Below, piece after piece: positions 9,751-58,131 of a stretch of DNA of 64,000 nt. The notes below the pieces were generated by a model, which was not told the DNA's origin, searched no databases, and was given only the letters and a program-made list of their open reading frames with translations. The translations under genes were made by a program, and so were the position numbers. The first letter of the stretch is position 1. Every line of letters starts with the position of its first letter. The DNA is taken from positions 49,628-113,627 of the forward strand of contig JBHLRS010000004.1 in NCBI GenBank assembly GCA_048882325.1, read 5' to 3'. The stretch is from Candidatus Thorarchaeota archaeon (GTDB taxonomy: Archaea > Asgardarchaeota > Thorarchaeia > Thorarchaeales > Thorarchaeaceae).

Positions 9751-9838
9751 GGTCAGTTTCTTGGTGATGGCATTTGCCTCCTCAAGTCCTTTAAGAAGTC
9801 ACTCCAATTCTAGGGTTATAAAGAATTGTGAGTCAGCG

Positions 9839-31536: not shown

Positions 31537-33579
31537 TCAATCTTGTTGTCTGTTTTTTATCGGAGGCATAACATTGGCATACCCATCCATGACAATTACA
31601 CCATCTGCATTGAAGACATCAAACCTAAGTCGACACAGGTTGTTCTCTGGGATTTTTTCAGTCACCTCAACAACTGCTCTGATTTCATCGCCAGGATAGA
31701 CTGGTGCTTTGAAGTTTACCTTCATATTGAACGCTAGTGTTCCCAAACCTGGAAGTTGCGTTCCAATAACACGTGCAACTAGTGCACCTCCAATTGGACC
31801 ATGAGCAATACGTTTTCCGAAAATAGTTGTAGCTGCATACTCATCATCCACGTGAAGTGCGTTATAGTCACCAGACATCTGAGCGTATAGATCAATATGC
31901 TCGTCTGTTACTAACATTGTTGATTCTGCTATCTCGCCGACCTCTATTTCATCCAAACTCTTGCCTAGTTTAAACTTGGATTCTTTTTCTGTTCTTTTGG
32001 TTTCAATAGGAGCCTCATCGGTCTTTTTGGTACCTTGAAGAATCTCTGGAGTAAATCTGAACATTCTCGCGAATTTCATCAATAACTCCATGTCATCTGT
32101 GTCAATAACGACTTTCTCAGTCATCATGGCTTGCATGGCATCAAGTTTCCCTAGCAAGATATTTCGCCATGTTGCTGAGTCTGTCTTCACAGTCATCTCT
32201 GGAGTATCTGTGTCACCCTTCTCAATGGAACACTTCTGATCGTTGATCTTCAACAACCACGAATCAGTGTCATCAAAGTAGAATCGAATAACAGCGGATA
32301 CACCTTCTGCGCGTTCAGGTCGAAATCCATTTGGAATGCTGGACATCATGGCATCGAAATCAATGGCATCCATGTCAGGCAAGACTTGGAAAGAGCTATC
32401 ACGTTTACTTTCGATATAGACCTCTCTCTGGATTAAGAATCGCAAAATCTCCGAGGTACCGCCCCCGATTGTACCCAATCTTGCGTCACGGTAGAACTTT
32501 TCAAGTGGGTAGAAGTCCTTGACATATCCCGCCCCTCCACAGACCTGAATCGCCATGTCACAGACTTCTACCGAAACTTCAGTTGCGTAGAGCTTAGCAA
32601 TCGTAGCTTCCTTTGTACATGGAAGGTCATTTTGAATCATCCGTGCAGCAGAAATCAGAAGAAGTCTTGCATTGCGCATTTTCACAGCCATATCAGCAAT
32701 CTTGAACGAAACTCCTTCAAATCGAGAGATGGGTTGACCAAACTGTTCCCGTTCTTGTGAATAGTTAACAGCAATCTCATATGGAGTCCTCATACAACCC
32801 AATGCCTCTGCAGCAATTCCAACTCGCTCTGAGTCCAATTCATTCATCAAGATTAGGAATCCCTGATTCTGCTTTCCGAGAAGATTCTCCTTTGGAACCT
32901 TTAGATTGTTCAGTCTGAAATGTGTCACGCGAACACCATCGCGACCCATCAGATTGAAGTCTTTCTCAACCTTAAAACCGTCCCAAGAGGTCTCGATTAT
33001 AAATGCAGACATGCCACTCTTACTGTCCACATGAGGATTAGTTATCGCAAACACTACAATCTGATCTGCAATACTACCATTTGTGATGTAACGCTTTTCA
33101 CCATTGAGCACCCAACACTCTTCTTTTTCATCCCACTTTGCATTGGTGACCATTCCAGCTGTGTCGCTGCCAACTTTAGGTTCGGTGATGGCAAGAGCAC
33201 CAATTTTCTCCCCCCGAGCCAGCGGTACTAGATACTTCTCCTTCTGTTCCTCTGTCCCATAACGAAGAATCGGAATTGCTGAGAGTGTGCAGCTCGCTCC
33301 AAACATCATAGTTGCTGAAGGACAGATTGCAGAAATCTCCTCTCCTGCAATCAGCTGATACATAAATGGTTTCTCTGATCCTCCGTACATTTTAGGTATC
33401 AAGAGACCTGAGAGACCGAAATCTCCTAGTTTTTTGAAATACCTGCGATGATTGAAATCAGGGCTGGTAATACTGTTCACAAGTGGCGTAATTTCCTTTT
33501 CAGCCCATTCTCTAACCCTCGAGCGAAATTCGAGCTCATCTTTTGTGTATAACAACATGTCATCATTCATTTGAGTCAT
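31537..33579 (-). CDS. tri-domain fusion: acyl-CoA dehydrogenase + SCP2 sterol-carrier domain + MaoC-like (R)-hydratase hot-dog domain
   Basis: ACAD core covers aa ~30-400 (ALAITEPKVGSDTAGM, RYITNG, catalytic-base region EILRFLIQREVY). The SCP2 domain reads AVIRFYFDDTDSWLLKI...GKLDAMQAMMTEKVVIDTD. The MaoC domain reads SGDYNALHVDDEYAATTIFGKRIAHG. Confidence 0.8.
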   Translation of the reverse strand: MTQMNDDMLLYTKDELEFRSRVREWAEKEITPLVNSITSPDFNHRRYFKKLGDFGLSGLLIPKMYGGSEKPFMYQLIAGEEISAICPSATMMFGASCTLSAIPILRYGTEEQKEKYLVPLARGEKIGALAITEPKVGSDTAGMVTNAKWDEKEECWVLNGEKRYITNGSIADQIVVFAITNPHVDSKSGMSAFIIETSWDGFKVEKDFNLMGRDGVRVTHFRLNNLKVPKENLLGKQNQGFLILMNELDSERVGIAAEALGCMRTPYEIAVNYSQEREQFGQPISRFEGVSFKIADMAVKMRNARLLLISAARMIQNDLPCTKEATIAKLYATEVSVEVCDMAIQVCGGAGYVKDFYPLEKFYRDARLGTIGGGTSEILRFLIQREVYIESKRDSSFQVLPDMDAIDFDAMMSSIPNGFRPERAEGVSAVIRFYFDDTDSWLLKINDQKCSIEKGDTDTPEMTVKTDSATWRNILLGKLDAMQAMMTEKVVIDTDDMELLMKFARMFRFTPEILQGTKKTDEAPIETKRTEKESKFKLGKSLDEIEVGEIAESTMLVTDEHIDLYAQMSGDYNALHVDDEYAATTIFGKRIAHGPIGGALVARVIGTQLPGLGTLAFNMKVNFKAPVYPGDEIRAVVEVTEKIPENNLCRLRFDVFNADGVIVMDGYANVMPPIKNRQQD

Positions 33580-33705
33580 ATATCAGCACCAAATTTCGAT
33601 TCAATCGATTAGACAACCGCACGCAGTTTAGAAGCTCTTAAATCTCCTCTCATCGCCGACCTATCCTCACCAGATTAATCTAAGAAGAGGAGACAAGGAT
33701 TTCGT

Positions 33706-35364
33706 ATGCGTTTCTTTGGTCATCTCATAAAGGGTGAGAAGTCAGAACCAGTATCAGGACAGACAAGCTTCTTCCCAAACATGAACAAAGCAATCGGAGA
33801 TCCTAGACTGCTTTACGCGATGGCACTTAGAGAACAAGGATCACTAAGTAGATTTGCAGCTAGGTATTTTTCAGGACAAATGCCTGAAAAGGCACCAGAA
33901 ATAAGATTGCTGAAGGACTATATCAAGGTCCATGGATATCCACAAGCGTCAGATGATGAAATTCAGGAGATAATGTTTGCCGGGTACGCAATTGGTGGAC
34001 CCAAAGAAGCAGCGATTGCATGTGAGGAGGCTCATGCAATCCGTCGTTTCATGCATAAGGAGTACTATGAGAAAGGGGAGGGTCTAACCCTTAAAGAACG
34101 TGCTGAGAGTCTGATCAAAGTTGGGGAAGTGCTTTGGAAACACTATGATGATTTCAAGGAGATTGGTATAGCAGAGGGAACCCCTGTCAAATTGTTTGAT
34201 TGGCAGACAACAGGTGTGTTTAAGACTCTATACAAAGAGCACATTGACTTTGCAAGTTCTAGGATAGAATCCAGAGAGATTCCTAGCTCGACAGAAGGAG
34301 AACGCACCATTCTGAGCCGCTATCCGTTTGGCGCTGTAGGACTCTTTCCACCATACAACGCAGCAATCGGTTTAGGGGGGATGGCTATCATTTCAAGCTA
34401 TTGGGCTGGGAACGCGACAGTAACTAGAACGCCATCAAAGATGCCCTTGACCAACATGGAGCTGGCGTATGTCTTAACTGAAGCAATGAATGATCTAGAT
34501 TTCCCGAAGAGTGCTTTTCAGTCAGTCATCGGTCCTGCTCGAAGCATTGCTCATTATATGGTAAATGAGTCACCTTTGAATGCAATGGTGTACTATGGTG
34601 ATTCTAACATAGGTCTTGAACTGATGTCACAAGCTGTACAAAGAGGGCTCCATTTCGTACCTGAACTTGCAGGGAGTGGTGCAAGCCTTGTTTGGAAAGA
34701 TGTAGACATAGACAGAGTGACAGATTATGTGAACCATGCACGATTCTTTGGCTCAGGTCAAATCTGTCTAGCTGCTAAGAGACTCTTTCTACATGAAGCA
34801 ATCTACAATGATTTCATGGAAGTGCTCGTTGAGAAAAGCCAGAAACTGAAGGTTGGTTTCCCAGAAGATCCAAACACTGATTTACCCATTATTGGTGCTC
34901 GTGCACTCTATCAAAACATCGATATGATTCGTGAAGCAGTCGGTAAAGGTGCTAGGTTAGAAACTGGTGGCTATCGCTTAAATGCTCAAGGTGAACGCGA
35001 TAAAGCAGGTCTGTTTCTTAAGCCAACAATTCTGAGTGATGTTCCACTCGATTGCAAGATGTGGTACCATGAAACCTTTGGTCCAGTGCTACCAGTCATG
35101 AAGGTGAGCTCATTTGAACAGGCGATCAACCAAGCAAACAACTCACCGTATGGATTAAGGACATCAGTCTACAGCGACGATCCTGAAATCTGGCAACGCT
35201 TCTTTGACGAGATTGAAGCCCCGGGAATAGCAGTTAACACGGATCATCTACACTTTGATGACTACTATCCACATTTAGGTGGATTGAAAATGAGTGGTCT
35301 CTTTGGTGGAAAATACTTCTATGAAGTCCTGACATACTTGAAGTATATGCATCTCCCTTCATAA
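33706..35364 (+). CDS. aldehyde dehydrogenase family protein with a ~100-aa N-terminal extension
   Basis: ALDH hallmarks: ELAGSGASLV (ELGG-type Glu), catalytic Cys in FGSGQICLAAKRLFLHE, ETFGPVLPV, and a Rossmann GxxxxG region. Confidence 0.75.
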   Translation: MRFFGHLIKGEKSEPVSGQTSFFPNMNKAIGDPRLLYAMALREQGSLSRFAARYFSGQMPEKAPEIRLLKDYIKVHGYPQASDDEIQEIMFAGYAIGGPKEAAIACEEAHAIRRFMHKEYYEKGEGLTLKERAESLIKVGEVLWKHYDDFKEIGIAEGTPVKLFDWQTTGVFKTLYKEHIDFASSRIESREIPSSTEGERTILSRYPFGAVGLFPPYNAAIGLGGMAIISSYWAGNATVTRTPSKMPLTNMELAYVLTEAMNDLDFPKSAFQSVIGPARSIAHYMVNESPLNAMVYYGDSNIGLELMSQAVQRGLHFVPELAGSGASLVWKDVDIDRVTDYVNHARFFGSGQICLAAKRLFLHEAIYNDFMEVLVEKSQKLKVGFPEDPNTDLPIIGARALYQNIDMIREAVGKGARLETGGYRLNAQGERDKAGLFLKPTILSDVPLDCKMWYHETFGPVLPVMKVSSFEQAINQANNSPYGLRTSVYSDDPEIWQRFFDEIEAPGIAVNTDHLHFDDYYPHLGGLKMSGLFGGKYFYEVLTYLKYMHLPS

Positions 35365-35844
35365 GATGCGTTCATACAGCTGAACAGACATGTCTTTAGC
35401 TTGTTCATATGGTTCACCCCATGGGCGAAAACCATACTTCTTCATGAGCTTCTCTCCTACCTCCTGACCAACAAGAATATTGCAATAGTTACGAACACAC
35501 CCATGAGCACGTCCATACTCAGCAAATTGAATATACATAGCTGACGCGAGACCCGAACCCCTACATTCTGGGAGCACAGTTTGATGCTCTCCAAACAGAC
35601 CCTTCTCCGTGATTTGTGCTTTGTATAGCCCAACAATCTTGCCTTTGAATCGGCTACCAAAGTAATGATAGCCATTCCTCATATCTGCAACAACCTGCTC
35701 AGGTGTGTAGATACGTTTCTTCCGCCAATGTTCCGGATACTCGAGAGCGAGCGGCCAGACTTCTTTGAAGAGTTCTGAAATCTCCATCGCATCTTTCTCT
35801 TCAAATTCAACTATACGAATCTCTTCTGGCAAGAATTTATCCAA
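35359..35844 (-). CDS. GNAT-family N-acetyltransferase
   Basis: A 161-aa protein with the acetyl-CoA-binding stretch (V/I)..ECRGSGLASAM. Confidence 0.55.
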   Translation of the reverse strand: MDKFLPEEIRIVEFEEKDAMEISELFKEVWPLALEYPEHWRKKRIYTPEQVVADMRNGYHYFGSRFKGKIVGLYKAQITEKGLFGEHQTVLPECRGSGLASAMYIQFAEYGRAHGCVRNYCNILVGQEVGEKLMKKYGFRPWGEPYEQAKDMSVQLYERIL

Positions 35845-35894: not shown

Positions 35895-37016
35895 CTAGTT
35901 CGTGCTAGTCTGAGCTGCCCAATCGTATGCTTCTTGTTCTGGTGTACAACCACCGCAATGATGGCAACCAGCAGTTGTCTTCTCAGGGTTGATCCCATTT
36001 CTGAATAGAATCAAACCAACTTTTTTGTAAAACTCAACGGATTCTTCGAGGTTGTCAACATAAGTTGGGACATACTGTGCTAGCTGACTACCAAAAGCTG
36101 GACGGACTGGGGCGACGATTGGAAGAACTCCAATAGATGCCAGTTCCTCTACTACTTGGAGTGTTTGCTCACTGTCTTCTCCTAATCCTTGAAGAACGTA
36201 CGTACTAACATTACCACGGTCAAAGTGTTCTAGAGCGATTTTGAACCGCTCCCGATAGAAATCTAATGAGCCATAATCATATTTGCCTGGAACCATCTTT
36301 TTTCGAACTGATTCATCAGTACTTTCAATGTGCATACCTATGGCATTTGCTCCTGCTTTAGCCACCTCTGATATCAGCTGATGATCAACCGGAGGTTCAA
36401 ACTGGACTCCAACGGGAATATCAGTCGAGTCACGTATGGCCCGGATTATCTTAATGAGTAGGGCACTTCCCATATCAGGTGAATCAGTGGTTCCTGTAGT
36501 CAACAGAACATCATCGATTGCACCTTCACGCTGGGCAGCCAGCACAACCTCAACTATCTGTTCAGGGGTCTTCTCCAGTACCGTATTGCCTGATGTGTAA
36601 GAATGAGGTATCGTGCAGAATTTACATTGTGAACCTTGGTCCCAATATTTGCAACCTTGATATACGGTAGTAGCTAGCGTACGAGAACCGTGTAAGAGAG
36701 CTATGCTGGAGTAAGGAATACCATCAGCAGTTGAATAATCATAGAACTTAGGTTTTGGAACTAATTTCAGTTCAACAGAGCCATCGTATAGCCATATTTT
36801 TGGATCATTGGTTTCCTCAAGTTGCGCAGAATGATAGCGTTCTGCCATGGTTCCCTGTCTGATCGGTACGCCACACGGACGTCCATTGGGTAGAAAGAAA
36901 TACATTGCACCAACGGGTCCTGCACCTCCCTTTCTTCCGCTGAACTTGTCTTCTGGTAGGACAGCCCCCTCTGTAAGAAGTCTAACCTTGAGTCGGAGCA
37001 GTTCATCAACATCCAT
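35895..37016 (-). CDS. putative radical-SAM-like/TIM-barrel Fe-S protein with non-canonical Cys spacing, last gene of the glp operon
   Basis: CKYWDQGSQCKFC (C-x8-C-x2-C) near the N-terminus of a predicted beta/alpha barrel, a GGE-like LLTTGTTD segment, and a C-terminal CHHCGGC. Not the canonical Cx3Cx2C. Confidence 0.3.
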   Translation of the reverse strand: MDVDELLRLKVRLLTEGAVLPEDKFSGRKGGAGPVGAMYFFLPNGRPCGVPIRQGTMAERYHSAQLEETNDPKIWLYDGSVELKLVPKPKFYDYSTADGIPYSSIALLHGSRTLATTVYQGCKYWDQGSQCKFCTIPHSYTSGNTVLEKTPEQIVEVVLAAQREGAIDDVLLTTGTTDSPDMGSALLIKIIRAIRDSTDIPVGVQFEPPVDHQLISEVAKAGANAIGMHIESTDESVRKKMVPGKYDYGSLDFYRERFKIALEHFDRGNVSTYVLQGLGEDSEQTLQVVEELASIGVLPIVAPVRPAFGSQLAQYVPTYVDNLEESVEFYKKVGLILFRNGINPEKTTAGCHHCGGCTPEQEAYDWAAQTSTN

Positions 37017-37045: not shown

Positions 37046-38170
37046 CTAATCTATCTTATTATACCTGCCAGAAATCACTCTGATAATAAACTCTGGTATA
37101 TCAAACACCTCAATACCAGAATCTGATTGGGAGGATAGTATATTCTTACAGAAAGGGCATGAGGTCACGAGATAACGGGCACCAACATTTTTCGCATGCT
37201 GAATCCTTTCTGCGCCAATTACCTTCGCATGCTCTGGGAACAGTGTTCGGAGTCCAGCGCCATTGCCACAACACATTGCATTCTCCCTGTTTCGCTCCAT
37301 TTCAACTATACTTGATCCGGTTACCTTTTCGATTATTTCTCGTGGTGCATCGTATATGCCTGAATGCCTTCCAAGATGACAGGGATCGTGATATGTGACT
37401 TTACCCTCTATTCCGCCTTGTGGCAGCCTGTCTATGGATTCTCGAAGGAACTCGCTGATATGGTGTACAGGCTTGTTAAGCTTTGTATCAGTCTGAAGAT
37501 AGTCATTTGTTAACGCGCGATAACACCCAGGGCATGTAGTTAAGATGGATACAGCATCACTTCGATTCAAGACCTCAATATTGTGCCTTGCAGCCATTAA
37601 GCCAAGGTCATGATCTCCTGTTCTGAATAGTGGACTACCGCAACACCACTCATCTGCAGATAGTTCTACAGTGTAGCCAAGTTGTTCTAGAAGAAGCACA
37701 GTGTTTTGAGCGATGTCCTTTTCTCGGTAGGCTGCTGTACAGCCTGTGAAGTAAAGGATCTTTGTTCCTTTCGAATTCCTAATTGTAATCTCTTCATTAC
37801 GAGTCAGCTGGTCTTCCCCGAAAGGATTGTGCGTTTCCTTAATGAGTTGAGCAATTCTGGCAACGCCTTCAGGTTGATGGTTTGCTTTCACAAGTTCTCG
37901 TCGTTTTTCTTCAACAAGTGTAGCTATGTCAATCTCTGGTTTGCACCATGTGAGGCAGTGACTACATTCGAGACACTGATACAATACCTCTACGCCTCGT
38001 GCATCGATCTCGCGTGTACCAGTGATTTCTTGATGAAGCAGAAGAGCACGACCATGAGGAGTAGGTGCATCTGACTTCCAAGCAAAGAATGTCGGACAAA
38101 CATGTCGACACATCTTGGGGCATGCTGCACACATTCTCACTTGCTCTGCAATTGTGTCTGAATCTAACAC
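37046..38170 (-). CDS. GlcF/HdrD-like Fe-S oxidoreductase subunit with two CCG domains
   Basis: Ferredoxin-like clusters (CAACPKMCRHVCP; CLECSHCLTWCKP) and two CCG Cys-rich domains (FTGCTAAY...CCGSP; HDPCHLGRH...CCGNGAG). Confidence 0.7.
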   Translation of the reverse strand: MLDSDTIAEQVRMCAACPKMCRHVCPTFFAWKSDAPTPHGRALLLHQEITGTREIDARGVEVLYQCLECSHCLTWCKPEIDIATLVEEKRRELVKANHQPEGVARIAQLIKETHNPFGEDQLTRNEEITIRNSKGTKILYFTGCTAAYREKDIAQNTVLLLEQLGYTVELSADEWCCGSPLFRTGDHDLGLMAARHNIEVLNRSDAVSILTTCPGCYRALTNDYLQTDTKLNKPVHHISEFLRESIDRLPQGGIEGKVTYHDPCHLGRHSGIYDAPREIIEKVTGSSIVEMERNRENAMCCGNGAGLRTLFPEHAKVIGAERIQHAKNVGARYLVTSCPFCKNILSSQSDSGIEVFDIPEFIIRVISGRYNKID

Positions 38171-39594
38171 GAACGCACCCCCAATCCCAACTTTCCAGGA
38201 TTCAGTATCCCATTTGGATCCAGTGCCTCTTTGAATTTCTTCAGAACACTGAAACTTGAGCCTAATTCATCTTCCGTATAACTGCTCCGAGTGAGTCCGA
38301 CACCGTGTTGATGGCTCATAACCCCGCCTGCTTTGTGGCAGGCAGCCACACCAACATCCCAGATTCTTCTGTATGTTACCCACGCTGTTTCCGCGTCAGG
38401 TTGCGCTGTGAAGAAAATCATGTAAATGCTGCCACCGTTCTGATACATGTGCGAGAAATGAGACATGACTACCGCATCTTCAGCCTCCATTGCTTCTTTC
38501 ATAGCTCTGTATACATTCTCGAGCTTGTCATATGTTGCGACAATGTCAATAGTGTCACCTATGGAATATCCACTAGTGGTGAGTCGAGTCGGATAGTACA
38601 TATCGTATCGATGTTCCCACCATCGTTTTGATGGGCCCTCTCCTTGGTCAACACCTCCTTCCTCTAGGCAGATTCGTACTGCATCTTGTTCATCAATCTC
38701 TAACTTTTTCGGCTTGCCATCAAAAGCCAGTAGGAGAATGCAATGACCTTGCTCAAATTCGAAATGAGTTGAAAAGCTCAATGCTGCATCTTCAGGATCG
38801 TAGAGTCGAACAACTGATGGAATAATTCCCGTTCTGAATATCTTACGAATTGTTTCAAGTCCACTATGGACATCGGGAAAGCTAACACTACGAAAGCGAC
38901 GTTCTTCGGGAATGAGAAATAGCTTCAATGTAGCTTCAGTGATAACACCGAGAGTCCCCTCAGAGCCAATAAAGAGCTGACGAAGGTCGGGGCCAACAGA
39001 ATGTCTTGGTACATCTTTAGTTTTGATGATTGAGCCATCAGCAAGAACCACTTTTAGTCCAAGAGCCATGTCTTCGATTTTTCCGTACAGAGATGACATT
39101 GACCCGCCGGATCTAGTTGCTAGGAATCCACCAATGTTTGATGCACGAAGTGATGTAGGAGTATGACCTGTAGTATACCCGTGACGATTGACTGCTTCTT
39201 CTAAATCTATACCGACCACTCCAGCTTGTACCCTCACCAACATTGATTCATGATCAATCTCATAGATCTTATCAAGTCGCTTCAAGTCGAGCTGAATTCC
39301 TCCATAGATGGGGAGGGTTCCTCCACTGGTTCCTGCACCACCTCCAACGGGTGTAACAGGAATCTTCAACTCGTTTGCTACAGTCAATACTTTGGAGACC
39401 TCTTCAGTACTTCCAGGAAATACAATCATATCTGCAAGAGGAAGCATTTCACCTGCTCGAATCTTGGCTTCACTAAGAGGCCATGCATCATGAGCATTCA
39501 GGATTCTATCAGTTTCCTGCATAGTGATATGGTCGTGACCTACAACCTTAGTAATTTGCTCAAAGGCCTTCTTCTTCGATTTATCATTCAGCAT
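38164..39594 (-). CDS. FAD-linked oxidase/dehydrogenase of the GlcD / D-lactate dehydrogenase family
   Basis: FAD-binding PCMH domain (IPVTPVGGGAGTSGGTLP...GIQLDLKRLDKIYEID) plus the C-terminal FAD-oxidase domain. It overlaps the GlcF-like gene by 7 nt. Confidence 0.75.
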   Translation of the reverse strand: MLNDKSKKKAFEQITKVVGHDHITMQETDRILNAHDAWPLSEAKIRAGEMLPLADMIVFPGSTEEVSKVLTVANELKIPVTPVGGGAGTSGGTLPIYGGIQLDLKRLDKIYEIDHESMLVRVQAGVVGIDLEEAVNRHGYTTGHTPTSLRASNIGGFLATRSGGSMSSLYGKIEDMALGLKVVLADGSIIKTKDVPRHSVGPDLRQLFIGSEGTLGVITEATLKLFLIPEERRFRSVSFPDVHSGLETIRKIFRTGIIPSVVRLYDPEDAALSFSTHFEFEQGHCILLLAFDGKPKKLEIDEQDAVRICLEEGGVDQGEGPSKRWWEHRYDMYYPTRLTTSGYSIGDTIDIVATYDKLENVYRAMKEAMEAEDAVVMSHFSHMYQNGGSIYMIFFTAQPDAETAWVTYRRIWDVGVAACHKAGGVMSHQHGVGLTRSSYTEDELGSSFSVLKKFKEALDPNGILNPGKLGLGVRSC

Positions 39595-39601
39595 TTACAG
39601 T

Positions 39602-40840
39602 TCACTCCTTTTTGGGGAGTCTCTGAGCAATGAACACTGTTAGGTCGTCAACCTCAACAGAACTGCCTGTTCTGAAGAGGTTACTCTCAATTTGTGCTGT
39701 ACAGAGTGGACAAGGTGTCACGACTCGATCAGCACCTGTTCTCTTTATGGCTTCTAGATTCTCTCTCACCACAGCATCAGCAACGTCGTCAGAATGGTAC
39801 GAGACCATTCCACCACCTCCGCAGCAAGAGTCATGGGCATCTGATTCAGCTACACTCACACCTGGAATCTGATGCAGGATTTCAATGGCATAATCGGAGA
39901 TCTGACGGGAGGTGTGTCGGATAAGATGACACGGGTCGTGTACAGACACATGAACGGTAGAATATTCTGAACTGTCTTCCATAGAGGCACGTAGTTTCTC
40001 TAGACCAATATCCTCAACCAGAAACTCAAGGATGTGAACTGCAGATATACCCCAATCCTGTTGATAAGAGATGTCGGACAGACTCGAAGTACATCCAGCA
40101 CAGGTTGTGACAATCTTCGTGACTCCTGAATCTTTGACTTTCTTCCTGAGCTCACTTGTCAGGTGGAGGTCTGTTTCATGATCACCAATGAGTCTAGATG
40201 GTAATCCACAACAGGACATCTCCTCGAGAAGAGTATAGTTCACCTCAAAGTGTTCCAAGATCACCTTTGCCGCCTCACGAACCTCTTGAGCGCGTTCCTC
40301 TGCCTGGCAACCAGGGTAAAACAAAACCTCTGCATTATCTGAAACCTTGTCCTCGACATAGGGTAGACCTAGACGCTCAAGCCGCATATCTCGACTTTCG
40401 TTCTTCTCTTCCCTATCCTCCCAGGGAACAAATGCAAGTCTGTGTTCGGTGAGAGACTCTCTCACGATATGGAAACCCTTGGGAACCAAATCAGGGCGGT
40501 GGTCAAAGATTCTTGCGCGAATTAAGTTGACAACCTCAGGAATATCCACATTCTTCGGACATACCTCACGGCAAGTGCCACACCCAGTGCAAAGATACAC
40601 TTTGTCTGCGGCAGCCCAAAATTCAGGAGGGGACCTGCTTAGTTCAACAGCAATGCTTCTCGGGCCACTAAAGCGATCAACTCCGACTGCCGCGACGACC
40701 GGACAATGATTGAGACAAAGACCACAATTGATGCACCGCTCTACTGACTTCACTGCTTCAAACTCGTGTGAATGATAGGGGGTTATTTTCTCCTCTCGAA
40801 GAGTGTTTTTAGCATATTCATAGGCCTCATCTTCATTCAC
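39602..40840 (-). CDS. glpC: anaerobic glycerol-3-phosphate dehydrogenase subunit C-like Fe-S protein
   Basis: Two 4Fe-4S motifs (CINCGLCLNHCP; CTGCGTCREVCP) and two CCG domains (YPGCQAEE...; HDPCHLIRH...CCGGGG). It sits immediately downstream of glpAB. Confidence 0.65.
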   Translation of the reverse strand: MNEDEAYEYAKNTLREEKITPYHSHEFEAVKSVERCINCGLCLNHCPVVAAVGVDRFSGPRSIAVELSRSPPEFWAAADKVYLCTGCGTCREVCPKNVDIPEVVNLIRARIFDHRPDLVPKGFHIVRESLTEHRLAFVPWEDREEKNESRDMRLERLGLPYVEDKVSDNAEVLFYPGCQAEERAQEVREAAKVILEHFEVNYTLLEEMSCCGLPSRLIGDHETDLHLTSELRKKVKDSGVTKIVTTCAGCTSSLSDISYQQDWGISAVHILEFLVEDIGLEKLRASMEDSSEYSTVHVSVHDPCHLIRHTSRQISDYAIEILHQIPGVSVAESDAHDSCCGGGGMVSYHSDDVADAVVRENLEAIKRTGADRVVTPCPLCTAQIESNLFRTGSSVEVDDLTVFIAQRLPKKE

Positions 40841-40841
40841 A

Positions 40842-42215
40842 TTAAGTCACCTCCTTAATGTGGTTTATTGCATTCCTTGTTGCAGAAAAACCACTCATCG
40901 CTGCAACTCCTAAACCACTTTTCTCGATGGAATAATCATATCCTGCGAGGACAGCCCCTGCGGAGTATAAGTTTCGTGCCCACTCAACACCATCATCATC
41001 GACAGGTCTGAACTGGGGATCTAGAGTGAGACCACATGAATTGACAGGATGACCTTCTGGACTTACTGCAATTCGGTTTGTATAACGAGAGGGGACAATC
41101 TCACTAGCAGAATGGTATGAATCTGTAACTGTCATCAACCCGAACAGAGTTTCACGAATTCCAGCATTGTCACCGCTAAGTCCTCCACCAATGAATTTGC
41201 CCGTGGAAAGAATGAACGCTTTGGCAGTAATGTCAAACGACCGTCGAGGTGTTTTTGTTTTTATACTTACAAGGCGACTCTCGGCTCTTTCATAAGAAAC
41301 AGCTTCATGGCCAATAAGCAGTTTGCCACCTTTCTTTCTGAATTGATCATCTAGAGCGAGCTGCAGCCTCATTCCAGGAACCGATGGAGGAAATCCAAGT
41401 AACTCAAAAACCTCTGCTCCAATTTGATCTTCTAGACTTCGTTTGGTTTCTTGAGCTGATTTCACACCTAGGACTGGTGGAAATGCAACATGGGTAGCTC
41501 CGAGTTTGTCAACCTGAGGTTTCAATTGTCTTGCAATTTCTTCTATTGAGCTTTCATGGTCCATGTGTCTGGCTATCTCAATGGAAGAAATATTATAGGA
41601 CTTACCAAAGGGCGAAACCTGCAACAGGCAATGTCCGACTTTTCGTGGTGATCCGCCAGTAGCGATTCTTTCCTCCAGATAAGTTTTCGCTGCTGTTGAT
41701 GGATTGAAGTCTGCGTTTCCCAAGATTCCAGCAAAGAGAAGGACACTGTTCTCATTCTTGTGAAGACTTTCGGAGTACATTGTTTCTTGGACAAGACAAG
41801 TTGGTTTCGTCGTTCCCAAGATTGTAATCGGGAATATGTTCGTCTTGAATTCCCCATATAATGAAGCGATTGAATCCTTCAGATTCTGTTTCAACCAAGT
41901 CATTGTTTCGTCTGTTCTGGCAACTATCTCAGAAACAACATTACTTGGATCAACGTTTTCACTGTATCCAATGATGCTGTAGGGATGGAGCGGGTAGAGG
42001 CCAGCAATTGCAGTCAATCCCTCTTCAGGTGTCATGAATGGTTCAGAAGCATCTGGCAGGTATCCAATAATGTCAATGGCTCCTGATGAATAAGCTGTAG
42101 CACTCTGACCTTTCCTGAGAATGACAGTAGAAAAGCCAGATTCGGCTGCAACAGTACCTGCAACCAGTCCAGCCATCCCTCCTCCAATCACAAGGAGGTC
42201 GCAATTCATCTCCAT
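40842..42215 (-). CDS. glpB: anaerobic glycerol-3-phosphate dehydrogenase subunit B
   Basis: N-terminal FAD dinucleotide fold CDLLVIGGGMAGLVAGTVAAESG, followed by SSGAIDIIGY, characteristic of GlpB. It is contiguous with glpA, with no gap. Confidence 0.65.
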   Translation of the reverse strand: MEMNCDLLVIGGGMAGLVAGTVAAESGFSTVILRKGQSATAYSSGAIDIIGYLPDASEPFMTPEEGLTAIAGLYPLHPYSIIGYSENVDPSNVVSEIVARTDETMTWLKQNLKDSIASLYGEFKTNIFPITILGTTKPTCLVQETMYSESLHKNENSVLLFAGILGNADFNPSTAAKTYLEERIATGGSPRKVGHCLLQVSPFGKSYNISSIEIARHMDHESSIEEIARQLKPQVDKLGATHVAFPPVLGVKSAQETKRSLEDQIGAEVFELLGFPPSVPGMRLQLALDDQFRKKGGKLLIGHEAVSYERAESRLVSIKTKTPRRSFDITAKAFILSTGKFIGGGLSGDNAGIRETLFGLMTVTDSYHSASEIVPSRYTNRIAVSPEGHPVNSCGLTLDPQFRPVDDDGVEWARNLYSAGAVLAGYDYSIEKSGLGVAAMSGFSATRNAINHIKEVT

Positions 42216-43868
42216 CTAAGAGCCCTCCTCCCATGGTTTGAGGTCATAGTCTACATCGGATTGGTCTAGGTTGGCTACGCAAGCATACATGCCCTGTGCA
42301 AGTTCTTCCTGAGCTAGCTGTTCACCCCTCATTGATGGGCGAATGCCTTTCCATCGCTCTGCTCTGAAGTCCAGAATATCGACGAGAAAGTCATCACCCT
42401 GTAGGTCAAGCTCTTCAGCCAAAATGGAGGCGGCTTTGTAGGTGCAGAAGGTTCCCTGGCAAGGTCCAGTGCCAAGTCGAACTCGTCTACGCAGATCGTT
42501 CAGTGTCTGCGGAAATTCTTCTCTAATTGCATATCGAATCTCTGCTTCGAGAACAGGCTCGCAAGTGCAGATTGTAGTCCTCCACTCAGGATTGTCCTTT
42601 GTCATTTCTAAGATCTTGACTAGCTCGGTTCCCCGACGAGCTCGAAGACGTTCTAAAGCATGCAGACTGACTCCATACTCGATAGAGAGAGATTCGATGT
42701 CAATATCTTTATCATTGCCAGGCAGAGGTTGCTCATGAGTTGTGCTCTTGGATTTCACACCCAGTTTCTTTGCTACAAGATCTGTGACGGTTTCAGCCAT
42801 ATGCCGACACAGAACTAGCTTACCTCCCGTAAAGCTAATCATCCCATTCTCATGATCTATAACCTGATATCCACGTGTCACTTTATCTTCAGGAACATTC
42901 CAATCAGGCACGAGAGGTCTAACACCAACCATTGTCCTGATGACACGAGCTTCACGAATTGATGGTATGACAGACTCTATACTCTGAAACAGATACTCAA
43001 TCTCGTCAAAAGAAGCTACTATCGTATCAGGATCCTCCCAAGTGTCCAAAGCGGTTGTTCCAAGAAGTGATGAATTCTCATGTGGAAATAGATAGATCCA
43101 TCTTCCGTCAACAGCCTTTGCAGTAACTCCAACATTCACAACTCGACGGTCTAGAATAATGTGAGCGCCTTTGTTGAGCCGAAGATTGAGTTCTGCACCA
43201 CTTCTCCTCGCAATCTTGTGTGCCCAGGGACCTGATGCATTCACAACCAGTTTTGTGCTTGCTTTCTCTGATTGTCCGGTTATTCGATTATAATATAGAA
43301 CACTTTGAATTTCATTGTCTGATTTTTCGAATCCGATTACCTCGCAATACGTCTTGACCTCAGCACCGTGATTTTTCGCATCAAGAGCTTGGAGAAGACA
43401 AAGCCGAAATGGATCAATGAAGAATTCTTCGTAGTATACACCTGCTATTACATCCGGATGAACCATTGGCTCGAGCGCTAGTGTTGCCTCAGGAGTGATG
43501 AATACCATTTCAGGAACATCCCGTTCATCTGCATTCTCGGAGTATGCATCAATATAATCTCCATCACTAGCTGCTAGACTGAGATCTAGAATAGGAGCGA
43601 TGATTGGATTCTTCATGATGATATGACGTGCGATTCTCCTGAGAAACACGACTTCCGAGGAGCATATCTTCATTATATCAGGTTCACCCCGATACTTTAG
43701 ACCTGAGGAGATCATTCCTGCACATGTACCAACCGTTGCAGATGCAATATCATCACGTTCCAATAGCAATGTCTTCAGACCGCGCATCGCACAATCTCGA
43801 GCCACTGCAGTACCAGTGCTTCCACCACCAATCACCACTACATCGAACTCGGATTCAGTCATGCGCAT
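42216..43868 (-). CDS. glpA: anaerobic glycerol-3-phosphate dehydrogenase subunit A, FAD-dependent with a C-terminal BFD-like [2Fe-2S] domain
   Basis: FDVVVIGGGSTGTAVARDCAMRGLKTLLLER (DAO-type FAD fold) and C-terminal CTCEPV...GTGPCQGTFC (BFD-like). Confidence 0.8.
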   Translation of the reverse strand: MRMTESEFDVVVIGGGSTGTAVARDCAMRGLKTLLLERDDIASATVGTCAGMISSGLKYRGEPDIMKICSSEVVFLRRIARHIIMKNPIIAPILDLSLAASDGDYIDAYSENADERDVPEMVFITPEATLALEPMVHPDVIAGVYYEEFFIDPFRLCLLQALDAKNHGAEVKTYCEVIGFEKSDNEIQSVLYYNRITGQSEKASTKLVVNASGPWAHKIARRSGAELNLRLNKGAHIILDRRVVNVGVTAKAVDGRWIYLFPHENSSLLGTTALDTWEDPDTIVASFDEIEYLFQSIESVIPSIREARVIRTMVGVRPLVPDWNVPEDKVTRGYQVIDHENGMISFTGGKLVLCRHMAETVTDLVAKKLGVKSKSTTHEQPLPGNDKDIDIESLSIEYGVSLHALERLRARRGTELVKILEMTKDNPEWRTTICTCEPVLEAEIRYAIREEFPQTLNDLRRRVRLGTGPCQGTFCTYKAASILAEELDLQGDDFLVDILDFRAERWKGIRPSMRGEQLAQEELAQGMYACVANLDQSDVDYDLKPWEEGS

Positions 43869-44005
43869 CTTTCCTTAGTTTCTGAGACTCAGTTGATGTA
43901 TTGAACCAACGCGCAATACTAAGGTTTCGGATTGTATAAGTGGGAAAATTATAACCAAGATTACATTAAAAGGAGACACTCTGGCGTTCATCTAGTGAAT
44001 ACACT

Positions 44006-44254
44006 ATGCCAAACTACGATCTAGGTACGCTTGTTATCGGTAACCATGATGTGAAAAAACTCACTCAAGCCCTTGATATCCCGGATCATCGTTTTGAAGA
44101 CATTGTGACCCTCGCCCGACAAGCCTGGGAGCATGAAGACACAATCAGTGAGTCAATTGAGTATATTGCACAGAATGCTAGTGGTTCCGAACTGGTTCTT
44201 GCGCTTGTATTCTTTGGTCGAATTTGGGAAGACAACCAACAAGAAGAGGAATAG
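44006..44254 (+). CDS. small hypothetical protein (82 aa)
   Basis: ORF only, in the divergent region upstream of the glp operon. Confidence 0.2.
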   Translation: MPNYDLGTLVIGNHDVKKLTQALDIPDHRFEDIVTLARQAWEHEDTISESIEYIAQNASGSELVLALVFFGRIWEDNQQEEE

Positions 44255-44256
44255 TA

Positions 44257-45726
44257 TCAGGAAATTGCGTCCAGTATTCGTCCAGAATATTCTATCACGA
44301 GTTTGTTGTATATCTCGTATTGTTTCTGGTACACTTCAACATTTTCTGGAATAGGCTCGCGTCGCTCCTCAATATGAACCATATTTTCTATGGCTTCTCG
44401 ATATCCTCCGTAGATTCCAGTGCCGACTGTTCCAAGCACAGCTGCACCAATCACGGTTGAATCTCTTACCTTGGGGAGAACTACGGTTTTATTCACACAG
44501 TCAGCCATGATTTGACGCCAAAGCGGAGAATTGGCACCACCTCCAGCAATAAGGAGCTCCTTGAACTCAACATCTAACATTCCTTCCATCATTTGAAGAT
44601 AGAAGGAGATAGTATACCCGTTCGCCTCCAGAATTGCTCGAGCAACATGAGCTTTAGTGTGGTTGAATCCAAGATTGTAGAGCATACCTAGGTTATATGC
44701 CATGAATGGGAACATGAGAAGTCCATCACTACCTGGAGGAACAGAGGCCGCAGAGGCTTCGATGATTTGATACACATCTTTCTCTGTTTTCACAGCCAAA
44801 GCCATCTCCGGTTCACAGTACTGATCACGATACCACTTGTATGTGAGTCCCGTCCCTGGAGTCACACCTTCAAGAATCCACTTTCCGGGCATTGCTGAGG
44901 GATGGCAATACATGACAAAGGTCTCCTCGAGATATTCGTCCATATGTGTGATCACGAAGGTTCCTGTTCCAGTAGTAGCCTTGACAACTCCAGTTTCGAT
45001 CACCCCCATCCCTAAGGCTGCGCACTGTTGATCCCCACTACCTAGAATTACAGGCGTTCCTTTTCGCAGTGATGTCGCCTTCGCGGCTGCTGAGCTGACC
45101 TCACCAACGGTTGTTCCTGAATTCTTGATGTCTGCAAGTTTGTCAATCGGGATACCTGTTGCTTCACACAGTTCTTCAGACCACTGGAGTTTCTCAAAGT
45201 CGAATGGACCAAAACGAGCCTCACCTGGAGAACTGACCACTGCTCCACACAATCTATTGTTGATGAAAGCATCGATATGTAGCCATTTGTATGCCTTCTT
45301 GAATAGGTCTGGTCGATTCTCGCTGAACCACATCAACTTCCGGACTGCATTCCGTTGACCGATCTCCTCAGCCATGTCCTTACTCTTCTCAGTCTTTCTG
45401 GAATCAACCCACGTCACTGTAGGTGCCAAGGCATTCCCGTCTTTGTCAATAGGTGTGATTGAGTCTCTTGCAGTTGTGACAATTGCACCAACTATAGCGT
45501 CAGCCCCGTGTTTGCAACCTGCTAGTGCTCTTTGCATTGTATTAGCTGATGCACGCCAGTATGTATCTGCAAGCTGTTCATGTGTTCCAACATCCTTGGG
45601 TTTAGGTGGGTATTCTTCATACGCCTTACTGACTTCTCTTCCTTCCTCATCGACAATCACAGAACGCGTTCCAGTTGTACCAATATCAAAAACTGCAAAC
45701 AGACGATCACTCATCAACGACACCAA
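44257..45726 (-). CDS. FGGY-family carbohydrate kinase (glycerol kinase / xylulokinase-like)
   Basis: N-terminal actin-fold phosphate-1 motif LFAVFDIGTTGTRSVI, LGSGDQQCAALGMG, and C-terminal IAGGGANSPLWRQIMADC. Its context next to glpABC suggests a glycerol substrate. Confidence 0.7.
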   Translation of the reverse strand: MVSLMSDRLFAVFDIGTTGTRSVIVDEEGREVSKAYEEYPPKPKDVGTHEQLADTYWRASANTMQRALAGCKHGADAIVGAIVTTARDSITPIDKDGNALAPTVTWVDSRKTEKSKDMAEEIGQRNAVRKLMWFSENRPDLFKKAYKWLHIDAFINNRLCGAVVSSPGEARFGPFDFEKLQWSEELCEATGIPIDKLADIKNSGTTVGEVSSAAAKATSLRKGTPVILGSGDQQCAALGMGVIETGVVKATTGTGTFVITHMDEYLEETFVMYCHPSAMPGKWILEGVTPGTGLTYKWYRDQYCEPEMALAVKTEKDVYQIIEASAASVPPGSDGLLMFPFMAYNLGMLYNLGFNHTKAHVARAILEANGYTISFYLQMMEGMLDVEFKELLIAGGGANSPLWRQIMADCVNKTVVLPKVRDSTVIGAAVLGTVGTGIYGGYREAIENMVHIEERREPIPENVEVYQKQYEIYNKLVIEYSGRILDAIS

Positions 45727-46749: not shown

Positions 46750-47592
46750 TTACTTATGTTTGAATTCTGCTGTTCTTTTCTCGAGAAATGCTGCTACACC
46801 TTCTTCTTTGTCCTCAGTGTCAAAGGTCCTACAAAATGCATCTAGCTCAAAGGCAAGATGCTCATCAATGGGTAGTTGCCATGCATTCTGTATGGACTGC
46901 TTGATAAAATCAAGAGCAACTCCAGGCATCTGCGCCAGCCGTCGTGCGAGTTCAGATACACCAAGTCTTAATTCTTCAACGGAGTTGAAGACTTTGTTCA
47001 CTAGACCAATCCTTAAAGCTTCATCAGCGGATATCAAATCGCCAGTGAATATGAGTTCTTTCGCAATCCCAAGACCGACAAGCCTTGAGAGCCGTACAGT
47101 CCCCCCATTACCGGGAATAGTTCCGAGCTTTATTTCAGGAAGACCTAGTTTTGCATTCGAAGACGCGTAACGGATATCACATGCAAGAGCCAACTCACAT
47201 CCGCCACCCAGCGCGTATCCGTTCACAGCACAAATGACGGGTTTCTTCATCGAGATCATGTATTGCGCGATATCCCTACTCGGGTCTACAACTTCCCGAA
47301 TGGTTTCTGAGTTCCGACCCACGAAATCAGTAACATCTGCTCCAGAGATGAAAGCCTTCTCTCCGTTTCCTGTTAGGATAACCACTCTGATGGATGCGTC
47401 CTCCTCTGCAAGTTTCAACAAACTCATCAGCTGTTTCTTGATTGCAATATTCAATGCATTGTATCTATCTGGTCGATTGATGGTGATAGTCGCTATTGCT
47501 TGCTCGATATCAAAAAGTACCAGATCCTCAGACACTTTTTTCACACGTCCATTATTACTGAAGCATCTTGGGAGGTGCGTAGCAATCCCCAA
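46750..47592 (-). CDS. enoyl-CoA hydratase/isomerase (crotonase) family
   Basis: ITINRPDRYNALN, ILTGNGEKAFISGADV, and the oxyanion-hole GGGCELALACD. The tracked start overlaps the upstream HADH gene by 38 nt, so the true start is probably an internal GTG or TTG. Confidence 0.8.
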   Translation of the reverse strand: MGIATHLPRCFSNNGRVKKVSEDLVLFDIEQAIATITINRPDRYNALNIAIKKQLMSLLKLAEEDASIRVVILTGNGEKAFISGADVTDFVGRNSETIREVVDPSRDIAQYMISMKKPVICAVNGYALGGGCELALACDIRYASSNAKLGLPEIKLGTIPGNGGTVRLSRLVGLGIAKELIFTGDLISADEALRIGLVNKVFNSVEELRLGVSELARRLAQMPGVALDFIKQSIQNAWQLPIDEHLAFELDAFCRTFDTEDKEEGVAAFLEKRTAEFKHK

Positions 47593-48685: not shown

Positions 48686-48688
48686 TCA

Positions 48689-49456
48689 CTACTCCTTATT
48701 CCTGAATGCGAGTCTAGTATATGGCTTTCCCCACCGTTCATCATACAATAGTCCTTCAAGCGGAGGTCTACTTGGTCCGATGTGTCGATCTCTGACTGGA
48801 ATCCCAATACAAAACGCTGTCAGCGGAGTCCATATTGGCGGAACTCCAATCCTTTCTCGAATCATCTCAGTGTATCTTGAGTCCGAACATACCAAAGCCT
48901 CATATCCGCAACCATAACCCATTGCTGATGCAACCATCCACATGTTTTGTATAGCCATTCCAGCCACCACTGAACCAAAGAGTTCATTGGGATACAACTT
49001 TGTTGCGTCGTGCCATGCCTGACTCGCACATACAATTATGACTGTGTCACTCATTTCGGGATATCTGAAGAGCTGGCCATCACGGAGTCTAGAGAATACC
49101 GCAGCTCGGAATTCATCATCGATATACCAGTTCCTCCCGCTTGTGAGCTCAAAGGGGGAGTTTCCAAATACCGTCTGAGCGTTTTCGTGAGCGATGTCAG
49201 CCAGAAATTCCTTTGTGGCTTGATCATCTCTTATCACAATTAGCCGTAGCATTAACATATTCTCAGGACTTGGAGCATGTCGAGCTGCCTCCAGTATCAA
49301 CTCAATGTGTTCATCTGGGATTTTTCCGCCAGTGAATTCTCGGATTGACCTGCGTGCCCATACATGCTTCAATGCCTCAAGACCAGCTGCGATCTTTGCA
49401 TCCTCTCTCTTCTCACTCCTAGAATCTGACGTCCCCTTTGTTTTGGTCGTCATCAC
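48689..49456 (-). CDS. nitroreductase-like family protein, paralog 1
   Basis: RRSIREFTGGKIPDEHIELILEAARHAPSPEN resembles the nitroreductase N-terminal FMN-binding region. It is ~70% identical to 58661..59440 and sits first in a beta-oxidation operon. Confidence 0.55.
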   Translation of the reverse strand: MMTTKTKGTSDSRSEKREDAKIAAGLEALKHVWARRSIREFTGGKIPDEHIELILEAARHAPSPENMLMLRLIVIRDDQATKEFLADIAHENAQTVFGNSPFELTSGRNWYIDDEFRAAVFSRLRDGQLFRYPEMSDTVIIVCASQAWHDATKLYPNELFGSVVAGMAIQNMWMVASAMGYGCGYEALVCSDSRYTEMIRERIGVPPIWTPLTAFCIGIPVRDRHIGPSRPPLEGLLYDERWGKPYTRLAFRNKE

Positions 49457-49546
49457 CTCACCTCACGAAAGGTTCTATTCGATATCTGTTGTTCACTAGT
49501 ATTTGCACTATTTGAATCAGTCTGACACTGAAGTCGCACCGGTAGG

Positions 49547-53775: not shown

Positions 53776-53778
53776 CCT

Positions 53779-56626: not shown

Positions 56627-56634
56627 AGTTTGTT

Positions 56635-57756: not shown

Positions 57757-57768
57757 TTGTATGACCTC

Positions 57769-58128: not shown

Positions 58129-58131
58129 CTT

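Follow-up and report, generated by a model that had tools for sequence, protein, structure and literature searches.

An acyl-CoA dehydrogenase–SCP2–MaoC domain fusion in Asgard archaea and its conserved aldehyde dehydrogenase partner

In this work we have investigated a gene on a stretch of 64,000 nucleotides from a Candidatus Thorarchaeota archaeon (assembly GCA_048882325.1, contig JBHLRS010000004.1, positions 49,628 to 113,627 of the forward strand; called the window below and numbered from its first letter). The gene joins an acyl-CoA dehydrogenase (ACAD), an SCP2 lipid-binding domain and a MaoC-type hot-dog hydratase in one product. Is such a fusion real and, if it is, what would an archaeon do with a lipid-binding domain placed between two enzymes of β-oxidation? 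A sequence-only reading of the window had proposed that the first two chemical steps of β-oxidation are united here with a lipid carrier in a single polypeptide of non-standard architecture, and had suggested an (R)-specific, peroxisome-like chemistry. In the public record the protein is named 'acyl-CoA dehydrogenase family protein', and we found no paper that describes the ACAD-SCP2-MaoC architecture. Genome papers lump such genes into '10-19 Acds' (PMC8163825), and for the cultured Lokiarchaeon MK-D1 one SCP-2 homologue has been noted (PMC12139934).

The reading frame and its distribution

The interval 31537..33579 is one uninterrupted open reading frame (ORF) on the minus strand, complete from its ATG (33577-33579) to its stop codon (31537-31539), with zero internal stops and a product of 680 residues. 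The coordinates given in the sequence-only reading were exact; the strand, which it had not given, is the minus strand. A GGTG Shine-Dalgarno-like motif lies 5' of the ATG, and the N-terminus M-T-x-(M/I)-N-D is kept across homologues. Every Pfam call on the protein exceeds its gathering score: Acyl-CoA_dh_N at residues 12-124 (E 9.5e-27), Acyl-CoA_dh_M at 128-225 (E 6e-21), Acyl-CoA_dh_1 at 238-387 (E 2.3e-44), SCP2 (PF02036) at 421-507 (E 3.9e-12, 46.8 bits against a cut-off of 21.3) and MaoC_dehydratas at 552-643 (E 9.8e-20). The first three form an ACAD module in which two helical domains enclose a middle beta-barrel domain (residues 12-387; 32419..33546, minus strand), which is also recognised by phmmer and Foldseek. 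It is followed by the SCP2 domain (about residues 405-515; 32035..32367, minus strand), supported by Pfam, model secondary structure and Foldseek, and by a single hot-dog domain of the MaoC/PhaJ type, that is, of (R)-specific enoyl-CoA hydratases (about residues 546-676; 31552..31944, minus strand), supported by Pfam, PDB and Foldseek matches. The full-length AlphaFold model (mean pLDDT 80.8) contains three folded units with cores mostly at pLDDT 70-95, and low-confidence linkers flank the SCP2 domain at residues 385-399 and 520-533. The hot-dog and SCP2 folds were compared from a separate AlphaFold model of residues 391-680. Foldseek found no solved structure that extends over two or all three of the domains. 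The single polypeptide that had been proposed is thus borne out by ORF, Pfam annotation and folds, and the domain order and bounds read from the letters (30-400, 410-520 and 540-680) are correct within about 20 residues. The combination of domains is new and its component parts are all familiar; it is not a new kind of enzyme.

Could the frame be an artefact of assembly or annotation, such as a chimera or a read-through of separate genes, or could its C-terminal domains be degenerate? Among the best 120 matches, 86 clusters hold full-length three-domain proteins of 66-87% identity, which come from NCBI, JGI, ENA and Logan assemblies and are labelled Thorarchaeota, Hermodarchaeota or 'Promethearchaeota' (the Asgard phylum name). 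A copy with 100% identity is present on an independent Logan contig. In a survey of one genome per species the three-domain gene was found in about 29 species, including on the closed chromosome CP070658. Sequence and length of the linkers change from one homologue to the next, yet stops are never present in them; the catalytic residues are invariant and all three folds are recovered. The earlier reading had named a frameshift or stop at the domain junctions as the sign of a chimera, and none is seen there. Since the fusion recurs across independent clusters and species genomes and its linkers are free of stops, an assembly chimera is ruled out, and we regard the chance of any such artefact, or of decayed C-terminal domains, as negligible. 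The fusion is genuine and conserved in Thorarchaeota and Hermodarchaeota, and we believe, with somewhat better than even confidence, that it is a multifunctional enzyme of these lineages.

A shorter form of about 518 residues, with ACAD and SCP2 only, accounts for 25 clusters among the same 120 matches, labelled Hodarchaeales, Heimdallarchaeota, Odinarchaeota and Promethearchaeota, and was found in about 11 species of the survey. Beyond these two forms the survey gave stand-alone ACADs only, of at most 56% identity, from Bathyarchaeia, Atabeyarchaeia, Helarchaeota, ANME-1 and others. With the SCP2 region as query we also searched a set of 1.84 billion representative proteins. In the 150 top-ranking ones, ACAD together with SCP2 was confined to this Asgard family and one doubtful protein of 461 residues, in agreement with the view that the architecture is non-standard. 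One Hermod-type protein of 783 residues (P0087, locus L086; JAEOTF010000160.1, 8001-10352) carries a fourth, C-terminal acyl-CoA-binding domain (ACBP, PF00887) in the order ACAD-SCP2-MaoC-ACBP. This domain argues for acyl-CoA substrates; the gene has no aldehyde dehydrogenase (ALDH) neighbour of the kind described below. Two possible sources of the fusion were considered and rejected. The sole candidate for a free-standing SCP2-MaoC donor gene, P0241 (285 residues), is a fragment on a 1196-bp contig. Recent recombination at a shared SCP2 with a gene of the SDR-SCP2-hydratase 2 type does not fit either, the SCP2 of that type being 25% identical and its hydratase a double hot dog.

Active sites and the lipid-binding domain

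The ACAD module has the three-part fold of its superfamily by Pfam (N, M and 1 domains above cut-off) and by Foldseek, with target-normalised TM-scores of about 0.9 to short-chain, butyryl- and isovaleryl-CoA dehydrogenases. Its best PDB match by phmmer is B. subtilis MmgC (5lnx, E 1e-80), and butyryl-CoA dehydrogenase (Bcd), short-chain acyl-CoA dehydrogenase (SCAD) and isovaleryl-CoA dehydrogenase (IVD) are matched as well. The motifs 'ITEPxVGSD' and 'YITNG' are kept, and the module probably uses FAD, to judge from these likenesses. In enzymes of the medium-chain (MCAD) and SCAD type the motif 'IYEGT' holds the catalytic Glu376. In alignments to solved ACADs the fusion has 'IGGGT' in its place (Gly372-Gly373-Gly374; codons 32458..32466, minus strand); Gly373 and Gly374 are invariant in 67 aligned family members and Gly372 is kept in 66 (one Ala). 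Where, then, is the base? The canonical Glu of the J-K loop is missing, and a glutamate is found instead at the alternative position on helix G. There Glu251 (codon 32827..32829, minus strand), the predicted catalytic base, stands opposite IVD Glu254 and Glu291 of LCAD, the long-chain acyl-CoA dehydrogenase, in pairwise alignments and is invariant in 67 of 67 members. Two ACADs are known to have their base on helix G, LCAD and IVD (PMC11153573). In the human LCAD sequence used here Pro132 and Glu291 match the numbering of the paper; for IVD we used the human sequence, which is 100% identical to PDB 1ivh_A. The module resembles these two enzymes in its helix-G base and in the glycine that replaces the J-K loop Glu of MCAD and SCAD, but its identity to IVD is only about 34%, and MmgC, Bcd and SCAD-type enzymes are better overall matches. 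The stand-alone ACADs of Bathyarchaeia, Atabeyarchaeia, Helarchaeota and others also have the helix-G base, so that it is a trait of the clade and not a feature of the fusion. Residue 220 (32920-32922), at the position of the Glu that makes the salt bridge to the electron-transferring flavoprotein (ETF) in LCAD and IVD (LCAD Glu260), is His in 65 of 67 members. The protein that takes up the electrons may hence bind in another way or be an unusual one.

The hydratase domain contains the motif SGDYNALH (residues 569-576; 31852..31875, minus strand), which aligns to the region of the PhaJ Asp/His dyad as defined in PMC4823750. Both dyad residues, Asp571 and His576, whose loss had been named as a sign of a degenerate domain, occur here and in every one of the 42 aligned three-domain homologues. 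Model confidence around the motif (residues 570-600) is pLDDT of about 55-65 in the full-length model and below 50 in the C-terminal one. By PDB search the closest proteins are P. aeruginosa PhaJ1 (5cpg, E 5e-30), A. caviae PhaJ (1iq6, E 2e-20) and human HTD2, whereas MFE-2 hydratases match only at E 7e-7 to 1e-3; Foldseek superposes the domain on 1iq6 with a TM-score of 0.86 and an rmsd of 2.1 Å. Hot-dog fold, hydratase 2 motif and dyad thus place the domain in the MaoC/PhaJ family. From this membership one would expect (R)-stereospecific hydration in an active site formed by a homodimer, PhaJ being an obligate dimer (PMC4823750). The (R)-specific chemistry suggested earlier is accordingly plausible on sequence grounds, the more so as in one Asgard contig the two-domain form has a gene of the MFE-2 type close by. 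PhaJ1 and PhaJ share with the fusion the dyad and bulky residues at the chain-length positions Leu65 and Val130. They are, however, free-standing homodimers of about 135-155 residues that are tied to the synthesis of polyhydroxyalkanoates (PHA), while the domain studied here is the C-terminus of a 680-residue flavoprotein.

The SCP2 domain is modelled as a five-stranded sheet with helices (pLDDT 75-94), and both its profile score and its alpha/beta fold are those of the family. By Foldseek it resembles A. fulgidus AF1534 (3bn8) and two alkylsulfatases, Pisa1 and SdsA1, in their SCP2-like domains (2yhe and 2cfu). Conserved hydrophobic positions are F408, F419, I431, W471, L499, L500, F503 and F507. 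The alkylsulfatases are the closest structural matches (Foldseek E about 1e-7; Pfam Alkyl_sulf_C E 7e-5). Like the fusion they join an SCP2-like domain to an enzyme of alkyl chains, but theirs is C-terminal, and their catalytic domain has a metallo-beta-lactamase fold with unrelated chemistry. SCP2-like domains are thought to hold hydrophobic tails in MFE-2 and in alkylsulfatases, and by analogy the SCP2 domain of the fusion may bind the acyl tail. A eukaryotic affinity of the domain was considered and rejected: sequence matches to archaeal AF_1534 and to mammalian SCP2 are weak, and equally so in single-sequence and profile searches against the PDB.

The aldehyde dehydrogenase partner and the direction of catalysis

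Does the gene have a partner? An ALDH gene of 552 codons (33706..35364, plus strand; Pfam Aldedh) is transcribed divergently from the fusion gene. The sequence-only reading had named neither this partner nor the organism. In 38 of the 44 loci that we examined, an ALDH (549-552 residues among orthologues) adjoins the ACAD-SCP2(-MaoC) gene, and it is the sole neighbour common to all lineages. It is divergent, at a distance of 125-230 bp, in every Thor- and Hermodarchaeota locus with upstream DNA, and in 8 of 10 two-domain loci it follows the ACAD-SCP2 gene on the same strand after 35-60 bp. The 38 orthologues keep the three catalytic residues of the superfamily, Cys in GQIC, Glu in PELAGSG and Asn in PPYN. 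In NCBIfam the protein scores at best 206 bits where 650 are required, and NCBIfam and PDB matches alike fall far below family cut-offs. The conserved Cys, Glu and Asn indicate a divergent superfamily member of the hydrolytic, acid-forming type. A CoA-acylating ALDH that feeds the ACAD directly is unlikely, as the general-base Glu is kept. An N-terminal extension of about 120 residues (33706-34070) with the motifs FPNMNK..DPR and PE.RLLKDYI..HG.P.A and no Pfam match is kept in all 38 orthologues.

Between the two divergent genes lies a conserved block of about 40 nt, GGTCGGCGATGAGAGGAGATTTAAGAGCTTCTAAACTGCG in minus-strand reading (33622..33661, minus strand), about 60 nt upstream of the ATG of the fusion gene. 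Its core, AGATTTAAG, is invariant in 12 of 12 Thorarchaeota and the surrounding block is mostly kept in 10-11 of them (minus-strand consensus GGTCGGCxATGAGAGGAGATTTAAGAGCTTCTAAACTG), while the flanking sequence is variable. This consensus is all but unchanged in 11 of the 12 loci. Hermod-type loci have a different conserved block. With its BRE/TATA-like element the block is likely the promoter of the fusion gene, and possibly it includes an operator. Other conserved neighbours reflect lineage-specific synteny only: RsmB in Thorarchaeota; aminotransferase, FAD_binding_3 and AOR in Hermodarchaeota; HAD, ACT, PAP2 and alpha/beta-hydrolase in the Heimdall/Hod group. No MaoC gene was found within 10 kb of two-domain genes. 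Since ALDH is common to all lineages, ALDH with ACAD-SCP2 appears to be the ancestral Asgard unit, to which the hydratase was appended in the Thor/Hermod branch.

What reaction would such a module carry out? We favour, at a probability of about 0.55, an oxidative sequence of two steps, from acyl-CoA over enoyl-CoA to (R)-3-hydroxyacyl-CoA, working together with the ALDH. In this scheme the adjacent ALDH would oxidise an aldehyde to the acid, which a separate CoA ligase would activate. Glu251 of the FAD-dependent ACAD module would abstract the alpha-proton to give trans-2-enoyl-CoA, and the PhaJ-type hot dog would add water through Asp571 and His576, yielding (R)-3-hydroxyacyl-CoA. The SCP2 domain on its flexible linkers would grip the hydrophobic acyl tail and keep the intermediate from leaving. 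Since ACADs assemble as dimers of dimers and PhaJ is an obligate dimer, the hot-dog domains of two chains would be expected to pair, an arrangement in which the fusion makes geometric sense. Acyl-CoA substrate, stereochemistry, oligomeric state and oxidative direction are what we infer for the fusion. A catabolic role fits the crotonases, 3-hydroxyacyl-CoA dehydrogenases, thiolase/DUF35 pair, glycerol kinase and GlpABC-like genes that the window has at 6-25 kb from the fusion gene. It is also favoured by the oxidative ALDH partner, by AMP-forming ligases near Heimdall- and Odin-labelled loci, and by an MFE-2-like neighbour in one locus. This locus (L084; JBHLPY010000085.1, Odinarchaeota label) contains, two genes from its ACAD-SCP2 gene, a 701-residue protein (P0121; 4552-6657, plus strand) composed of SDR, SCP2 and a double-hot-dog hydratase 2, with an AMP-forming ligase nearby and a second copy of the ALDH family about 8 kb off.

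Several observations weigh against this reading. The steps of ALDH and ACAD are not consecutive: a ligase is needed between them, and none is conserved beside them. The hosts are anaerobes, for which the oxidation of acyl-CoA is thermodynamically difficult. Neither an ETF gene nor one for another electron acceptor is present in the window, and no ETF genes were found in the 44 loci, the rest of the genome not having been searched. A gene for an (R)-specific 3-hydroxyacyl-CoA dehydrogenase was not seen in the window or close to any of the Thorarchaeota loci. The closest solved relatives of the ACAD module include the reductive butyryl-CoA dehydrogenase and caffeyl-CoA reductase (with EtfAB), and a MaoC dehydratase has been studied in one archaeon, where its role is the synthesis of fatty acids and not their breakdown (10.1101/2024.07.05.601840).

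The signals on chain length conflict as well. The bulky or branched chains of the earlier reading may find a parallel in the predicted base at the IVD/LCAD position, although stand-alone archaeal ACADs have this base too. Met91 stands at the position of IVD Leu95 and of the cavity-widening Pro132 of LCAD, Ile605 and Val670 stand at those of PhaJ Leu65 and Val130, and the nearest solved relatives are SCAD, IVD and a C4-C6 PhaJ; all this looks short-chain, as Leu65 and Val130 restrict PhaJ to C4-C6 (PMC4823750). A widening of the LCAD kind by a proline at the start of helix E was considered and rejected, the invariant Pro87 of the family being four residues off. Long chains are suggested by the SCP2 domain, which is structurally nearest to domains that recruit alkyl chains in alkylsulfatases, by the ACBP fusion, and by lipid-related neighbours, namely PAP2 and alpha/beta-hydrolase in Heimdall/Hod loci and glycerol catabolism in Thorarchaeota.

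Might the enzyme run in reverse, as a dehydratase and enoyl-CoA reductase ('DH-ER') that takes electrons from ETF or ferredoxin? The hot dog would then remove water from (R)-3-hydroxyacyl-CoA, and the Bcd-like module would reduce the enoyl-CoA. In this way the protein could make or elongate fatty acids as CoA esters while SCP2 keeps hold of the chain as it grows, or it could dispose of electrons in a fermentation of the butyrate or propionate type. In NCBIfam and the PDB the ACAD module has among its best relatives acryloyl-CoA reductase AcrC, Bcd of A. fermentans and C. difficile and caffeyl-CoA reductase CarC, which are all physiological reductases; the hosts are anaerobic, and the residues of the pocket look short-chain. 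Hermodarchaeota are reported to have 2-3 ETF complexes (PMC8163825). In S. acidocaldarius a MaoC-type protein has been shown to be an (R)-3-hydroxyacyl-CoA dehydratase on CoA esters in fatty-acid synthesis. That dehydratase, however, is a separate protein docked to thiolase/DUF35, the reductase of the pathway is an MDR enzyme and not an ACAD, and the system has no ACAD or SCP2 (10.1101/2024.07.05.601840). Moreover, neither ETF, thiolase/DUF35 nor ketoacyl reductase adjoins the gene in any of the 44 loci, and electron-bifurcating Bcd/EtfAB enzymes rely on the Glu of 'YEG', where the fusion has 'GGG'; etfA and etfB were not found in the window or the 44 loci, the genome being otherwise unsearched. 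The sole universal partner is an oxidative, hydrolytic-type ALDH, which suits catabolism and not synthesis. We consider the reductive direction possible rather than probable.

One may also ask if the (R)-3-hydroxyacyl-CoA is diverted, either into PHA monomers or by a 3-hydroxyacyl-CoA epimerase route in which nearby crotonases feed (S)-dehydrogenases. The hot dog is most like the PHA-supplying PhaJ1Pa and PhaJAc (PMC4823750). Three crotonases (46750-47592, 49547-50332 and 55679-56491) are encoded in the window together with two 3-hydroxyacyl-CoA dehydrogenases of the (S)-type (47555-48685 and 56635-57756), all of them on the minus strand at 13-25 kb from the fusion gene, and an SDR-type (R)-dehydrogenase is lacking. 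No PHA synthase or phasin gene was found, however, in the window or the 44 loci, whole genomes not having been searched. The two-domain form, which has no hydratase, appears to be ancestral and is wider, so that the hydratase looks like a later addition rather than the reason for the module. Such a diversion seems to us unlikely.

Other genes of the window were also annotated. The neighbours of the fusion gene include PAC2, a PDCD5-like dsDNA_bind protein, RsmB/NusB and TatD, which indicate an archaeal host, and beyond the ALDH follow a GNAT protein (35359-35844) and a radical SAM protein (35895-37016). Genes of glycerol and redox metabolism form a block (37046-45726, minus strand) that is syntenic in other Thorarchaeota (for example locus L001); it consists of an FAD oxidase like GlcD and its CCG-domain subunit (37046-39594), a GlpA/B/C-like anaerobic glycerol-3-phosphate dehydrogenase (39602-43868) and an FGGY kinase, probably glycerol kinase (44257-45726), all on the minus strand. 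The crotonases and 3-hydroxyacyl-CoA dehydrogenases belong to two paralogous sets (46750-50332 and 55679-59440, minus strand), each with a crotonase, a dehydrogenase and a nitroreductase-family protein (48689-49456 and 58661-59440, minus strand). The second set also holds two small ORFs without a Pfam match (57769-58659), and a thiolase with its DUF35 partner is encoded at 53362-54945 on the minus strand. In Heimdall/Hod loci (L003, L033-L039 and L046; 8-9 genomes) genes for a HAD hydrolase, an ACT-domain protein, a PAP2 phosphatase and an alpha/beta-hydrolase (Hydrolase_4) lie 3' of ACAD-SCP2 and ALDH, which hints at a context of phospholipid breakdown for the two-domain form. Elsewhere in the window a cluster at 8479-17797 encodes von Willebrand factor A-domain proteins (8479-9750, 15496-16716 and 16655-17797), among them ORFs of 883 (11476-14127) and 373 residues (14378-15499), neither with a Pfam match. 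The usual prokaryotic stomatin operon is present at 4692-6333 (plus strand), a Band 7/SPFH (stomatin-like) gene and after it an NfeD-like one, with DUF92 (1398-2366) and an Rce1-like CAAX protease (6382-7152) close to it. A scan of the window for tRNA genes found none.

Relation to peroxisomal enzymes and meaning for Asgard archaea

Is the fusion a relative of the peroxisomal multifunctional enzymes? MFE-2 (HSD17B4, D-bifunctional protein) has the order SDR-hydratase 2-SCP2 and catalyses steps 2 and 3 of β-oxidation. As in MFE-2 and SCPx, an enzyme of β-oxidation is covalently tied to SCP2 in the fusion, and with MFE-2 it also shares an (R)-specific hydratase of the MaoC type and consecutive steps on one chain. 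The fusion, in contrast, has the order ACAD-SCP2-hydratase and would catalyse steps 1 and 2. It has no SDR domain, its N-terminus being an ACAD; its hot dog is single (about 130 residues) and PhaJ-type, while hydratase 2 of MFE-2 is double; and its SCP2 is internal, before the hydratase, while that of MFE-2 is C-terminal. No specific sequence affinity of its domains to those of eukaryotic MFE-2 was found. The fusion is thus analogous to peroxisomal MFE-2 and not a member of its family, and the description 'peroxisome-like' in the earlier reading holds by analogy only, the SCP2 domain in particular being no closer to eukaryotes.

The L084 protein P0121 has the same layout of enzyme, SCP2 and (R)-hydratase as the fusion, but its N-terminal part is an MFE-2-type (3R)-hydroxyacyl-CoA dehydrogenase, its hot dog is double, and its SCP2 is 25% identical to that of the fusion family (pairwise E 3e-12). 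The SDR is closest to the (3R)-hydroxyacyl-CoA dehydrogenases of yeast, fly and mammalian MFE-2. None of these SDR-SCP2-hydratase 2 genes lies near the Thorarchaeota loci. Proteins of this kind form about 12 Asgard clusters and hundreds of bacterial ones (Planctomycetota, Myxococcota and others), and the tethering of SCP2 to (R)-specific enzymes of β-oxidation is therefore not a eukaryotic invention. Could ALDH, ACAD-SCP2(-MaoC) and the Asgard SDR-SCP2-hydratase 2 together make up an unrecognised archaeal β-oxidation route, SCP2-tethered and (R)-specific, for hydrophobic chains? We think this improbable on present evidence. The chains of such a route may be fatty or isoprenoid aldehydes from membrane lipids, and in design the route may be a prokaryotic counterpart of the peroxisomal branched-chain pathway with MFE-2 and SCPx, perhaps even related to it by descent, in the archaea that stand closest to eukaryotes.

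With its parts familiar and SCP2-tethered enzymes of β-oxidation occurring in many bacteria as well, the fusion is a useful lead and not a surprise of principle. It is a well-supported domain fusion with a conserved partner gene, moderately interesting for the lipid metabolism of Asgard archaea, and it corrects metabolic reconstructions in which the gene is counted as an ordinary acyl-CoA dehydrogenase. The pan-Asgard pairing with ALDH offers a concrete module of two genes that can be expressed and assayed. This module could show the fate of fatty or isoprenoid chains in uncultivated archaea, which bears on the debate on the 'lipid divide'. If the oxidative reading is true, a single lipid-binding protein of Thor- and Hermodarchaeota would carry acyl-CoA through both opening steps of its oxidation and make an (R)-hydroxy intermediate, in contrast to the (S)-specific crotonase route encoded in the same window. 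Asgard archaea would then run two stereochemically distinct systems of β-oxidation, comparable to those of eukaryotic mitochondria and peroxisomes.

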